38,644 bases of DNA from IMG/VR virus record IMGVR_UViG_2850756110_000011; one strand, written 5' to 3'. Source of the DNA: a virus. Taxonomy: Duplodnaviria; Heunggongvirae; Uroviricota; Caudoviricetes. A model generated the notes under the pieces. That model was given only the letters and a program-made list of their open reading frames with translations. It ran no database searches and was not told where the DNA came from. The position numbers and the translations under genes were made by a program. Positions within the stretch are counted from its first letter, which is position 1; each line of letters begins with the position of its first letter. Below are positions 9,251-14,427 of this stretch, one piece after another.

Positions 9251-9568
9251 CCTCGCGCATACAACCGGGCAGTGATGTGATTGTCTGCGCTGAAATGGAC
9301 GAACAGTGGGGCTACGTCGGTGCTAAATCACGTCAGCGCTGGCTGTTTTACGCGTATGACAGGATACGGAGGACGGTTGTGGCGCACGTCTTCGGTGAAC
9401 GCACTCTGGCCACACTGGAGCGTCTTCTGAGCCTGCTGTCGGCCTTTGAGGTCGTGGTATGGATGACGGATGGCTGGCCGCTGTATGAATCACGCCTGAA
9501 GGGAAAGCTGCACGTTATCAGCAAGCGTTACACTCAGCGCATTGAGCGACATAATCTGAATCTGAGAC
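9249..9568 (+). pseudogene. insB: IS1 InsB' reading frame, 3'-truncated by IS66 #2 / IS110 insertion
   Basis: ...[51 protein letters not shown]... then reads into foreign sequence after 9568. Confidence 0.6.
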
Positions 9569-9571
9569 GTA

Positions 9572-11091
9572 AGGCAGTATGACTTTCCGTGAGACAGATG
9601 CTGGCCAACGTGGGATATTTAACGCGGGTTAACATCGTTGTCAGAGCCGCATGGGTGAGCTGTTGCTACACCCCGGTATTTCCACCACGGAGGCCAGCAT
9701 GAACAACAATAACACATTGTACGTCGGGTTAGATGTTCACAAAGAATCGATTACTGTCGCTTATGCTATCAATTCAGAACCTGTTGAACTGATGGGTAAA
9801 ATTGGCACATCACCTACTGATATTCAGAATCTTTGTAAACGTCTCAGGTCAAAGTCATCGCAGGTCAGTATCGTTTATGAAGCGGGGCCCTGTGGTTATG
9901 GACTTTATCGTCGGCTGGTGAAATCCGGTTTTGACTGCATGGTCTGCGCCCCCTCACTTATCCCGAAAAAACCGGGGGAGCGGGTTAAAACCGATCGCCG
10001 TGATGCCATCAGACTTGTGCGTTCACTGCGTGCAGGAGATCTTTCTGCTGTCTACGTACCCGGCATTGAAGATGAGGCATTCCGGGATTTGGCCCGGGCA
10101 TGGGCATCTGCCCGCGATGATTTACGGCATGCAAGGCAACGTCTGAAATCGTTTCTTCTGGTTCATGGGGTCCATTATGTCGGGCGAGCAGATTGGGGCC
10201 CTGCACACCGACGCTGGCTCAGCAAATACTCATTCGAAAGTCCCTGGCGACAATTAGCTTTTGACGAACACCGTCGTACAATAGAAGACCGGCAGGCACA
10301 ATGTGAACGGCTGGAATCCGCCCTGAAGGAGGCCGTTACCGAATGGAGGCTGTATCCGGTAGTAGAGGCGCTGCAAGCCATGCGAGGGATTCAGTTTATT
10401 ACTGCGGTTGGATTAATTTCTGAACTGGGTGATCTGACCCGTTTTGAACATCCACGACAACTGATGTCATGGTTTGGTATCACGCCATCAGAATATTCAT
10501 CGGGTGGAAGCAGACATCAGGGCAGCATTACCAAAGCCGGAAACAGCTATGCCAGAAAGCTATTGGTCGAGGCAGCGTGGAGTTACCGTCATCCGGCACG
10601 CATCAGTCCGGCAATACAAAAAAGGCAGGAAAATTTACCCCGCCCCGTCATTGACAGAGCATGGGATGCTCAACTCAGGCTTTGTAAGAGGTATCGAAAA
10701 CTTCAGGCCAAAGGAAAGAATGTCAATATTACAATTGTTGCTGTTGCACGTGAGCTGGCGGGTTTTATCTGGGATATGGGCCGAATAGCAATGTCTGTCG
10801 CACAACAACCACAATGTCACAAATAAAAAATGAGAATAACCAGTTCCCTGAAGGCGACGTAGCCCGGTACAAGAGTAACCCACGTTAGCGCTTGGCGACG
10901 GCGGAACAAAGCTGATTCGCGACGTAAGAAAGTGGCAGGCTCATATGACGGACCTCTGTAATGCGGTATCCAACCCGCGAATATCAGCGTGATTCACCGT
11001 CGGATTTACTGCTACGTCGCCCTCAGGGAATTAAACCTAAAAAGAAAATCGTCAAAATTAGAGATTCCGGTTTGACACGGAAAGTCATATC
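9572..11091 (+). mobile_element. IS110-family element, copy 2 (near-identical to copy 1, opposite orientation in the window)
   Basis: Same ends as copy 1; a few substitutions between copies visible in the overlapping ORF translations. Confidence 0.8.
9699..10826 (+). CDS. IS110-family (DEDD-type) transposase/recombinase
   Basis: Same 375-aa protein as 6448-7575; the 391-aa ORF call is an upstream extension. Confidence 0.9.
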   Translation: MNNNNTLYVGLDVHKESITVAYAINSEPVELMGKIGTSPTDIQNLCKRLRSKSSQVSIVYEAGPCGYGLYRRLVKSGFDCMVCAPSLIPKKPGERVKTDRRDAIRLVRSLRAGDLSAVYVPGIEDEAFRDLARAWASARDDLRHARQRLKSFLLVHGVHYVGRADWGPAHRRWLSKYSFESPWRQLAFDEHRRTIEDRQAQCERLESALKEAVTEWRLYPVVEALQAMRGIQFITAVGLISELGDLTRFEHPRQLMSWFGITPSEYSSGGSRHQGSITKAGNSYARKLLVEAAWSYRHPARISPAIQKRQENLPRPVIDRAWDAQLRLCKRYRKLQAKGKNVNITIVAVARELAGFIWDMGRIAMSVAQQPQCHK

Positions 11092-11159
11092 AGCGTACAG
11101 CCTGAACCGTCTGGTCAGAATCTGACGAATTAGACAAAGTGGTGTCCACCAAATAAGTA

Positions 11160-11561
11160 GTGGGAACCAAAGTGTCAGATATGCAGAAAAATGTGAATCC
11201 CGGCAGGCGAAAAGGCTGCCCTAATTATCCTCCCGAATTTAAACAGCAGCTCGTTGCTGCCTCCTGTGAACCCGGGATATCCATCTCAAAACTTGCTCTT
11301 GAAAATGGCATTAACGCCAATCTGTTGTTCAAATGGCGACAACAATGGCGCGAGGGAAAGCTGCTATTACCTTCTTCAGAGAGCCCCCAGCTACTTCCTG
11401 TGACTCTCGATGCAGCTGCCGAACAGCCAGAATCGCTCGCAGAGGATCCGGAAACCCTCAGTATCAGCTGTGAGGTAACGTTCCGGCACGGGACGCTCCG
11501 CTTCAATGGCAATGTCAGCGAAAAGCTCCTGACTCTGCTGATACAGGAACTGAAGCGATGA
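11160..11561 (+). CDS. IS66-family accessory protein TnpA (orf1), element #2
   Basis: ...PEFKQQLVAASCEPGISISKLALENGINANLLFKWRQQW... Confidence 0.8.
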   Translation: MGTKVSDMQKNVNPGRRKGCPNYPPEFKQQLVAASCEPGISISKLALENGINANLLFKWRQQWREGKLLLPSSESPQLLPVTLDAAAEQPESLAEDPETLSISCEVTFRHGTLRFNGNVSEKLLTLLIQELKR

Positions 11562-11905: not shown

Positions 11906-11953
11906 GCCTCTTTATCCTGGTCGACGCTGAATGAGCCTGGTAATATACCCGGT

Positions 11954-13492
11954 ATGAGCAGCTCACTTCCTGACGATATCAATGCACTGAAACGTCTCCT
12001 TGCCGAACAGGAGGCGCTGAACCGTGCCCTGCTGGAAAAGCTGAACGAGCGTGAACGCGAAATAGACCATCTGCAGGCACAGCTGGATAAGCTGCGCCGG
12101 ATGAACTTCGGCAGCCGCTCCGAAAAAGTCTCCCGTCGTATCGCACAGATGGAAGCTGACCTGAAGGCACTTCAGAAAGAAAGTGATACCCTTACCGGTC
12201 GGGTTGACGACCCGGCCGTGCAGCGCCCGCTGCGTCAAACCCGCACCCGCAAACCGTTCCCCGAATCACTCCCCCGCGATGAAAAACGGCTGCTGCCGGC
12301 AGCGTCATGCTGCCCGGAATGTGGAGGCTCACTGAGCTATCCGGGTGAGGATGCCGCCGAACAGCTGGAGTTGATGCGCAGCGTCTTCCGGGTTATCCGG
12401 ACTGTACGTGAAAAGCATGCCTGTACTCAGTGCGATGCCATCGTGCAGGCCCCCGCGCCTTCACGGCCCATCGAGCGGGGTATCGCAGGACCGGGGCTGC
12501 TGGCCCGCGTGCTGATCTCAAAGTATGCAGAGCACACCCCGCTGTACCGCCAGTCTGAAATGTACGGCCGCCAGGGCGTGGAGCTGAGTCGTTCACTGCT
12601 GTCGGGCTGGGTGGATGCATGCTGCCGGCTACTGTCACCGCTGGAAGAAGCGCTTCAGGATTATGTGCTGACTGACGGTAAGCTCCATGCTGATGACACG
12701 CCTGTCCCGGTGCTGTTGCCAGGCAATAAGAAAACGAAGACCGGGCGGTTATGGACCTACGTTCGTGACGACCGTAACGCCGGGTCAACGCTGGCGCCGG
12801 CGGTGTGGTTCGCTTACAGCCCGGACAGAAAAGGCATCCATCCGCAGACCCATCTTGCGGGGTTCAGTGGTGTACTGCAGGCGGATGCATACGCCGGGTT
12901 CAACGAGCTGTACCGGGATGGCCGGATAACGGAAGCCGCCTGTTGGGCTCACGCCCGCCGTAAAATCCACGATGTGCACGTTCGCACCCCGTCAGCCCTG
13001 ACGGAGGAAGCGCTGAAACGGATCGGCGAACTGTACGCCATCGAGGCAGAGATAAGGGGAATGACGGCGGAGCAGCGCCTTGCCGAACGTCAGTTGAAAA
13101 CGAAACCGCTGCTGAAATCCCTGGAAAGCTGGCTGCGTGAAAAGATGAAAACCCTGTCGCGACACTCAGAACTGGCGAAAGCGTTCGCATACGCCCTGAA
13201 CCAGTGGCCGGCGCTGACGTACTATGCAGATGATGGCTGGGCTGAGGCGGACAATAATATCGCTGAAAATGCGTTGCGGATGGTCAGTCTGGGCCGCAAA
13301 AACTACCTGTTCTTCGGTTCGGATCATGGAGGAGAGCGGGGAGCGCTGCTGTACAGCCTGATCGGGACGTGCAAACTGAACGGAGTGGAGCCAGAAAGCT
13401 ACCTCCGCTATGTACTTGACGTCATAGCCGACTGGCCGATAAACCGGGTCGGCGAACTGCTCCCCTGGCGCGTAGCACTGCCGACTGAATAA
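11954..13492 (+). CDS. IS66-family transposase TnpC (orf3), element #2
   Basis: 512 aa; same architecture as 4563-6155 but clearly divergent in sequence. Confidence 0.9.
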
Positions 13493-13530
13493 CACATCCC
13501 CGTCAATACGGTTCTTGCTGCACGCTTACC

Positions 13531-14427
13531 ATTGACGGGCGTGGTCTGGCTGGCGAGATCAGCAAGGAAACGGGTAAATCCCTGCGTGATAACGCTGAAT
13601 ACGTTAATCCCTGGGCGTCTCTGCATCGTGTTCAGCAATTCCGCTTCTTTGGTATTCCAGGGCGTCAGGCTTACCGTGAACTGCGGTTGTTGGCTGGTCA
13701 GGCGGCAAGGCAGCAGGGTGACAAAAAAGCAGGTGCGCCGGTACTGGATAACCCGCGCCTTGATGCCATCCTGGCTGCTGCTGATGCTGGCTGTTTTGCC
13801 ACCTACATTATGAGGCAGGGCGGCGTGCTGGTTCCTCGCAAATATCACTTGATCAGAACCGCTTATGAAATCAATGAAGAGCCGACCGCCTATGGCGATC
13901 ACGGTATTCGTATTTATGGCATCTGGTCACCCATTGCAGAAGGCAAGATCTGCACTCATGCAGTGAAGTGGAAAATGGTTCGTAAAGCCGTTGACGTTCA
14001 GGAGGCGGCAGCCGACCAGGGCGCTTGCGCCCCTTGGACTCGTGGCAATAACTGTCCCCTTGCTGAAAATTTGAACCAACAGGAGAAAGATAAATCAGCT
14101 GATGGGAACCCCAGAACGGACATTACCAGCATGGATGACAAGGAGTTGCACGATTACCTGCACAGTATGAGCAAAAAAGAGCGCCGGGAACTGGCAGCAA
14201 GGTTACGCCTGGTGAAACCGAAACGGCGTAAAGACTACAAACAGCGAATTACAGACCATCAGCGACTGCAGCTCGTGTATGAGCTGAAGTCCAGAGGATT
14301 TGATGGCAGCGAGAAAGAGGTCGATTTACTCCTTCGCGGAGGCAGTATTCCGTCAGGAGCAGGCCTGCGTATCTTCTATCGGAACCAGCGTTTGCAGGAA
14401 GATGATCAGTGGCGGAACCTGTATTAA
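13531..14427 (+). pseudogene. C-terminal fragment (about 298 codons) of a phage replication-initiation gene (P2 gpA-like by position), 5'-truncated at the IS66 #2 boundary
   Basis: Frame open from the IS66 right end ([28 protein letters not shown]...) with no start codon context; identification by synteny only. Confidence 0.4.

Follow-up and report, generated by a model that had tools for sequence, protein, structure and literature searches.

Members of the IS66 family of insertion sequences (IS), which include IS66, IS679, ISEc8, and ISEc22-type elements (ISfinder), carry three open reading frames (ORFs) in the order tnpA-tnpB-tnpC and produce 8-bp target duplications. These family properties were reportedly described by Han et al. 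in 2001, and IS-mediated chromosomal rearrangement in Shigella was reportedly described by Yang et al. in 2005. In Shigella, homologous IS copies are known to mediate rearrangements (Hawkey et al. 2020, PMC7373316). In this study, an IS66-family element (IS66 #2) was analyzed, which lies at 9569-13529 on the plus strand of a 38,644-nt stretch of Caudoviricetes DNA (IMG/VR record IMGVR_UViG_2850756110_000011), hereafter called the window. IS66 #2 separates the 5' part of an IS1 from the 3' part of gpA, a prophage replication endonuclease gene, and has no target duplication. In all likelihood, IS66 #2 is a recombinant copy that arose by homologous recombination between IS66 copies, four of which were involved. 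The event is an ordinary, already known kind of Shigella genome scrambling and involves no new mechanism.

IS66 #2 is 3961 bp long and consists of a 2441-bp IS66-family element and a nested 1520-bp IS110-family element. The presence of two nested elements in 9561-13537 goes beyond an earlier reading of the window that was made from the letters without database searches (the sequence-only reading), as does the length of the IS1 fragment to the left (649 of 768 bp). The genes of IS66 #2, all on the plus strand, encode TnpA (11160-11561), TnpB (11558-11905), and TnpC (11954-13492). The three ORFs matched the profiles NF047595 (97 bits, cut-off 74), NF033819 (120 bits, cut-off 50), and NF033517 (465 bits, cut-off 180). 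The left tip GTAAG occupies 9569-9573, and the right end, ...GCACGCTTAC, finishes at 13529. Both terminal inverted repeats start with GTAAGCG: the left repeat reads GTAAG/CGTACAGCC, split here and contiguous in L008 and other loci, and the reverse complement of the right repeat is GTAAGCGTGCAGCAAGAACC. The IS66 sequence picks up again at 11094 with CGTACAGCCTGAACC, 3' of the nested element. Uninterrupted relatives are 2441 bp long with the left repeat GTAAGCGTACAGCC, and E. coli copies approximately 97% identical to the element are annotated as 'ISEc22 family'.

For comparison, approximately 80 loci (labelled L001 and so on) were fetched from Shigella dysenteriae/boydii-type genomes by means of the window proteins and neighbouring gene fragments, and the 8 bp on either side of each 2441-bp copy in these loci were tabulated with a script. 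The window itself showed 0 mismatches to the Shigella chromosome CP026805.1 over the available 19,582 bp. IS66 #2 has no 8-bp duplication: the left flank is TCTGAGAC (9561-9568) and the right flank is CATTGACG (13530-13537). The sequence-only reading had reported the same absence with exact coordinates and both exact 8-mers, and re-inspection revealed no duplication. Seven other sites in related genomes hold the same 2441-bp element between perfect 8-bp duplications; the absence at IS66 #2 is therefore meaningful and secondary. The window also holds an internal control for simple insertion. IS66 #1 (3680-7704, plus strand), a different IS66-family element approximately 66% identical to IS66 #2, keeps its duplication intact, with GTATTTTG at 3672-3679 and 7705-7712.

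The left neighbor of IS66 #2 is the 5' part of an IS1 (8920-9568, plus strand; 649 of 768 bp), whose left inverted repeat lies at 8920 and which is broken after TCTGAGAC. The fragment ends with ...AATCTGAA-TCTGAGAC, and the sequence before the break was also read as ...CATAATCTGAA-TCTGAGAC, ending at 9568. An intact IS1 occurs at the same place, between YdaE and a 147-aa ORF, in L022, L047, and L051, and TCTGAGAC is found once in the intact IS1 of L022. The right neighbor (13530-14427, plus strand) is the last 898 bp of the 2415-bp replication endonuclease gene gpA of the 186/P2 family. It has no start codon, and its frame is open from 13531 to the stop at 14427 (897 nt). These 897 nt showed one mismatch to the 3' end of the 2415-bp 'replication endonuclease' gene (WP_112048224.1). 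The Phage_GPA domain (PF05840) falls in the displaced 5' part, and no NCBIfam model matched the retained 298 aa. The reference gpA gene came from the intact 186-like prophage of E. coli UPEC-245U (L001), located between rcdA (ybjK) and the ybjL side, and reads ...ATCAGTAAGAA-CATTGACG-GGCGTGG with a single copy of CATTGACG; gpA is also intact in S. boydii Sb227 and others. The sequence-only reading had described an IS1 flank on the left and a startless replication-gene frame on the right, and both identifications held. The intact prophage at the ybjL side, with which it had suggested a comparison, is the one in UPEC-245U, and Shigella sisters carry an IS66 in gpA with the CATTGACG duplication.

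CATTGACG stands on both sides of the IS66 in gpA, as in a simple insertion, in at least 8 Shigella assemblies, including CP026807.1, CP045784.1, PSSQ01, CP026840.1, CP026823.1, and CP026825.1 (loci with the double CATTGACG: L002, L006, L007, L009, L034, L036, L053-55, L075, L077, and L078). The pair TCTGAGAC-IS66-CATTGACG was found in the window (CP026805.1) and in CP026834.1, the latter without the ISSso6-like IS110 element. The junction with this insert is present on 2 contigs and the junction without it on 1 contig (CP026834.1, L008/L028); a junction-specific 67-aa ORF (9379-9582) was found on two contigs only, one of which is CP026805.1. Related genomes with the junction always have IS66 there (L008/L028, L032). 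In a megablast search of 8900-14500 against complete E. coli genomes, no record had the junction.

The partners of the two mismatched 8-mers were found on other IS66 copies. In CP026805.1 itself, approximately 135 kb to the left of the window junction and on the other strand, an IS66 copy is flanked by a DUF4376 gene fragment ending with GATTTTGC and, on the other side, by TCTGAGAC-AACATCTGG... (L048/L070). After TCTGAGAC come exactly the last 119 bp of IS1 and then the 147-aa ORF known beyond the intact IS1 in sister genomes. The two halves give 649 + 119 = 768 bp, a complete IS1. Therefore, the IS1 3' end was not lost, and TCTGAGAC is a genuine duplication split over two copies. The sequence-only reading had proposed a search for the reciprocal junction elsewhere in the same genome, and this is that junction. 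A search for the right repeat end followed by TCTGAGAC found nothing in a contig collection with one genome per species, which evidently holds no such Shigella. The same DUF4376'-GATTTTGC-IS66-TCTGAGAC-IS1 3' arrangement was seen in UYIT01 as well as in the source genome (L016, L043, L048, L070). In CP026834.1 and UYIT01 (L035, L033, L074, L076), the left arm of the 186-like prophage, rcdA-int-CI-CII-dam-gpA', ends with CATTGACG, followed by IS66 and then ACTTAACT-ybgS-aroG-gpmA-galMKTE-modF. The gpA 5' part of 1525 bp and the 3' part of 898 bp, minus the 8-bp duplication, add up to 2415 bp. In CP026834.1, the gpA halves share one strand, with 27.3 kb between the starts of their IS66 copies (L035/L076 vs L028); the prophage left arm lies approximately 27 kb upstream, beyond ybgS-gal-mod-ybhA and a lambdoid remnant. 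The fourth pair, zitB-ACTTAACT-IS66-GATTTTGC-tail-fibre genes, was found at L014 and L060.

The four flank pairs close into a cycle (CATTGACG, ACTTAACT, GATTTTGC, TCTGAGAC, then CATTGACG again), in which each 8-mer lies to the left of exactly one copy and to the right of exactly one other. Rejoining the flanks, with every 8-mer kept once, rebuilds a known uninterrupted sequence at all four sites. The empty gpA site is contiguous DNA in L001 and the empty IS1 site in L022. The empty zitB/ybgS intergenic site is contiguous in 5426/5426 complete E. coli genomes and the empty DUF4376 tail-fibre gene site in 9 E. coli genomes. The missing halves stand on other copies, and thus no DNA was lost. Simple insertion was also observed at the tail-fibre gene, with GATTTTGC on both sides in CP026842.1 (L071). 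An intermediate with GATTTTGC-IS66-ACTTAACT-ybgS is present in six sisters, all of which keep the simple IS66 insertion in gpA (L065-69, L072).

These data fit the following history. Four copies of one 2441-bp IS66 element most likely inserted in the ordinary way, each making its own 8-bp duplication: in gpA of the 186-like prophage between rcdA and ybjL (CATTGACG), in the IS1 beside ydaE in the ipaH-carrying lambdoid prophage of the ybhA/pgl region (TCTGAGAC), in the zitB/ybgS intergenic region (ACTTAACT), and in the DUF4376 tail-fibre gene of the same lambdoid prophage (GATTTTGC). Host homologous recombination, probably of the RecA type, would then have swapped flanks between copies. Such exchange is plausible because the copies are at least 99.7% identical, with 2-7 single-nucleotide polymorphisms (SNPs) in 2441 bp, which provides ample homology; uninterrupted copies were found at 37 places in related loci, and 30 full-length (2441-bp) ones were compared with the window copy. 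The window copy would thereby have received its left flank from the IS1 insertion and its right flank from the gpA insertion.

For the order of the exchanges, the IS66 copies were named Z (zitB/ybgS), I (IS1), F (tail-fibre gene), and G (gpA), and the chromosome was divided into segments: A, ...zitB; B, ybgS...ybhA-lambdoid int...ydaE-IS1 5'; C, IS1 3'...late and tail genes; D, DUF4376'-ipaH-pgl...rcdA-186 left arm-gpA 5'; and E, gpA 3'...ybjL. A K-12-like ancestor with the four insertions would have had the order A-Z(+)-B-I(+)-C-F(-)-D-G(+)-E. The first exchange was a Z-by-F inversion, the state of many sister genomes; the coordinates of CP026840.1 give the order rc(C)-rc(B)-IS66(-)-D-G(+)-E (rc, reverse complement). 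Two further IS66-by-IS66 exchanges would lead from the sister state to the order predicted for the source genome from L048/L070 (4.32 Mb) and L032 (4.45-4.47 Mb), rc(C)-IS66(-)-D-IS66(+)-B-IS66 #2(+)-E. Written in genes, this order would be tail genes...IS1 3'-IS66(-)-DUF4376'-ipaH-pgl...rcdA-left arm-gpA 5'-IS66(+)-ybgS-gal-mod-ybhA-lambdoid remnant-IS1 5'-IS66 #2(+)-gpA 3'-right arm-ybjL. The two exchanges may have been an I-by-G inversion followed by re-inversion of D (two nested inversions), or a loop-out of the 25-kb B (ybgS...IS1 5') between I and F' with re-entry at G. At least three reciprocal exchanges are required for a four-way cycle, in agreement with the reconstructed count. The last step was the insertion of the ISSso6-like element into the left inverted repeat of IS66 #2; it is placed latest because CP026834.1 has the same junction without ISSso6. 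A different model, a gpA-by-IS1 inversion over approximately 117 kb (with the ybhA-side orientation as in S. boydii), was dropped, since the gpA halves of CP026834.1 are on one strand and 27 kb apart.

The junction sequences, the permutation of the flanks, the empty sites, the simple insertions in gpA and the tail-fibre gene, and the relative order of the events were read from the data. Several points weigh against this history. The gpA 5'-IS66-ybgS junction was seen in CP026834.1 and UYIT01; for CP026805.1 itself, we infer it, and with it the CATTGACG partner, from the counts (three large contigs per junction type) and from consistent distances. The intermediate of the two-inversion route, gpA 5'-IS66-IS1 3', was seen in no genome among the fetched loci. 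No zitB/ybgS or IS1 copy with both duplication halves was found, and the simple-insertion states at these two sites are reconstructed. The SNP patterns among the IS66 copies are mosaic and do not reveal crossover points, and RecA dependence is assumed.

Other explanations of the junction were considered. The sequence-only reading had offered an adjacent deletion, in which the transposase of an IS66 in IS1 or gpA removed the IS1 3' end and the prophage left arm. Within the window alone this would account for the data, since the window lacks both parts as well as a duplication, and deletion variants at IS66 ends do exist in sister genomes (L011; L044/45/49). However, the IS1 3' end with TCTGAGAC is kept on another IS66 copy of the same genome (L048/L070), gpA 5' with CATTGACG and the whole left arm is present 27 kb upstream in the sister CP026834.1, and in intact genomes more than 100 kb separates the two loci (0.65 vs 0.77 Mb in Sb227). 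With both 'missing' parts retained next to their duplication halves, adjacent deletion is excluded for practical purposes. The broader claim of an IS-mediated rearrangement is correct in that the exchange took place at an IS66 copy; a chain of exchanges among four copies takes the place of the single transposase-mediated step. The inversion option of the same reading would correspond to one-step intramolecular replicative transposition, in which the gpA copy attacks IS1 and inverts the intervening DNA, so that the IS1 copy and the junction are made together. This would directly yield IS1 5'-TCTGAGAC-IS66-CATTGACG-gpA 3'. It also predicts gpA 5'-IS66-TCTGAGAC-IS1 3', which was unseen in any gpA 5' or 147-aa ORF context, and IS66-TCTGAGAC-IS1 3' occurs in genomes that have both gpA flanks (CP026807.1, L044 with L002/L034; CP045784.1, L045 with L006). 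The IS1 copy is thus present in genomes with an unrearranged gpA copy, which makes the IS1 insertion an independent, earlier event, and we regard the one-step route as highly unlikely.

The sole non-ordinary reading left for the rearrangement is a composite-transposon move of the 30-kb ybgS-gal-mod-prophage block. In this scenario, IS66-(ybgS...IS1 5')-IS66 jumped whole into gpA and made the CATTGACG duplication, and the gpA with a single IS66 arose later, when the two copies recombined with each other. The 30-kb unit in CP026834.1 has direct IS66 copies and CATTGACG on both outer sides, as would be expected. By contrast, gpA in CP026840.1 and PSSQ01 already contains IS66 between its duplication halves, although the IS1 beside ydaE is uninterrupted (L047/L055, L027/L046/L053); therefore, the gpA copy is older than the IS1 copy. 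In addition, the segment is single-copy, and its native site, now bordered by halves of other duplications, no longer contains it (L014, L048). We consider such a move very improbable. Mis-joining of contigs across the 2.4-kb repeat would be conceivable in principle, given the many near-identical IS66 copies. The junction is, however, present in three assemblies, one of them without the ISSso6 insert, and the four junctions agree with one another in UYIT01, CP026834.1, and CP026805.1, so that the chance of an assembly artefact is negligible.

Further rearranged flanks were observed in this group of genomes. Additional permuted pairs, in L050 (CP026819.1), L047 (CP026840.1), L073 (CP026828.1), and L052 (AKNG01000065.1), comprise zitB-ACTTAACT-IS66-TCTGAGAC, GCTGATGC-IS66-GATTTTGC with its converse, and AGATTAGC-IS66-TCTGAGAC. 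They indicate that exchanges between IS66 copies were repeated and independent across this Shigella clade. In L044, L045, and L049 (CP026807.1, CP045784.1, and CP026832.1; approximately 5420-7890), the IS66 at the IS1 3' end has the left flank ATAAAAAC, which lies inside IS66 #1 and corresponds to approximately 4552-4559 of the window. The tnpC of IS66 #1, ISSso6, IS600 orfB, ydaE, and the IS1 5' part are absent from these three loci. This pattern is a deletion between two IS66 copies in direct orientation, after one of them had inserted in IS66 #1. On the 10-kb contig UYIT01000008.1 (L037/L079), a second 186-like left arm ends with gpA 5'-IS66, which is either a real duplication or assembly redundancy.

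The nested element in IS66 #2 (9574-11093, plus strand, 1520 bp) is an ISSso6-like member of the IS110 family inserted after nucleotide 5 (GTAAG) of the left inverted repeat. Its DEDD-type IS110 transposase (9651/9699-10826, plus strand) matched NF033542 with 274 bits against a cut-off of 140, the called gene was also matched by PF01548 and PF02371, and the RefSeq name in an E. coli relative is 'IS110-like element ISSso6 family transposase'. The sub-terminal repeats are TATGACTTTCCGTG ... CACGGAAAGTCATA. With no duplication and with its left inverted repeat split by this element, IS66 #2 is probably immobile as it stands. The ISSso6-like element was found just after GTAAG of an IS66-family repeat, in the same orientation, at 4 independent sites: the left repeat of IS66 #2 (9574-11093, plus strand), the right repeat of IS66 #1 (approximately 6182-7699, minus strand), another IS66 copy in CP026807.1, and an E. 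coli copy; the loci outside the window are L021:286-1801 and L080:306-1930. Its transposase always reads away from the IS66 tip. In L080 (1808-1930; E. coli NZ_CP102947.1), the ISSso6-like right end is duplicated approximately 106 bp apart.

The two ISSso6-like copies of the window are 99.9% identical and their host IS66 elements only approximately 66% identical, a sign that insertion may be guided to the conserved tip of IS66 repeats. IS110-family elements carry a non-coding bridge (guide) RNA that matches target and donor; an Rfam scan of the IS110 copies gave no match, and a literature search found no paper on the target preference of ISSso6. From this sequence pattern we tentatively suggest that the ISSso6-like element may be a dedicated parasite of the IS66 family, guided to GTAAG^CGT, where it would split the repeat and probably silence that end; reversible excision could then switch IS66 off and on. 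We regard this reading as doubtful at present. According to a report attributed to Partridge and Hall in 2003, the IS1111/IS110-group elements IS4321 and IS5075 target the inverted repeats of Tn21-family transposons. The ISSso6-like element resembles IS4321 and IS5075 in its orientation-specific insertion at one fixed position in the terminal inverted repeat of another element and differs in its target, the tip of the IS66-family repeat (GTAAG^CGT).

The left part of the window (1-8919, plus strand) is the end of segment B, a lambdoid prophage remnant with YdaT (548-970), a CI-like protein (1258-1665), Rha (2458-3282), an IS600 interrupted by IS66 #1, and a YdaE-like protein (8623-8880). The nesting at 3342-8638 is three-deep: IS600 orfA is cut by IS66 #1, and the right inverted repeat of IS66 #1 is cut by its ISSso6-like element. 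In sister genomes, one side of the lambdoid remnant is contiguous with int-ybhA-modCBA, and the other side carries holin and tail genes, ipaH, and pgl. The left partner is thus what remains of a lambdoid prophage with ipaH that lies between ybhA and pgl. The sequence-only reading had proposed that a rearrangement at the IS66 copy joined a Qin-like to a P2-like remnant. The union of a lambdoid remnant with a 5'-truncated P2-family prophage stands; the left partner, judged by its position in sister genomes, is not at the Qin locus.

To the right of gpA, the right arm of the 186-like prophage (14479-35790, plus strand) contains the tum/DinI-like region and the terminase, head, lysis, tail, D, and ogr genes. 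In its early region (CI, CP76/CII, Dam, DinI/Tum-like), the prophage is 186-like rather than P2-like, so that cox and B, which the sequence-only reading had listed as missing, are not the displaced genes. The chromosomal gene ybjL (36026-37711, minus strand) lies at the right end of the prophage and matched NF003440 over its full length (1177 bits). Between the tum/DinI-like region and the portal gene, in the usual cargo hotspot of P2/186, two genes (15306-17820) make up a Septu-like system. Their products, an AAA ATPase of 549 aa (PtuA-like) and an HNH-type protein of 293 aa, matched PDC-M01 A and B, a candidate defence system in PADLOC, with E = 3e-55 and 1e-33. The prophage has further defects: the portal gene is split into ORFs of 133 and 199 aa (17928-18962), and an IS1 lies in the tail-gene region (26608-27375).

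This locus is a worked example of how an IS copy without a target duplication can be read through the missing halves on other copies. A 25-kb block of core genes (ybgS, aroG, gpmA, gal, mod, ybhA) and a prophage remnant now lie inside a split gene of another prophage. For annotation, this means that the gpA fragment and the 'missing' prophage arm belong to one disrupted prophage, not to two remnants, which is relevant to users of synteny or prophage boundaries in Shigella. The IS66 family joins the IS types that visibly drive the shuffling of the Shigella chromosome, here resolved to the base level.

Compared with known systems, IS66 #2 has the three-ORF layout, the GTAAGCG... tips, the 2441-bp length, and, at unrearranged sites, the 8-bp duplications of the IS66 family; it differs in having no duplication and a left inverted repeat broken by a nested IS110 element. 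Gene A of phages 186/P2 is followed here, as in P2/186, by the order tum/DinI-like, cargo, Q, P, O, N, M, L..., whereas gene A itself is split by IS66, with its 5' 1525 bp and the int-CI-CII-dam arm displaced by approximately 27 kb in the sister genome. As in other Shigella IS rearrangements, dispersed near-identical IS copies served as portable homology, the mismatched duplication halves have their complements elsewhere, and prophages were shuffled. There is no difference in kind; the particulars are that an IS66-family element took part instead of the better-studied IS1, IS600, and IS629, and that four copies form a closed cycle.

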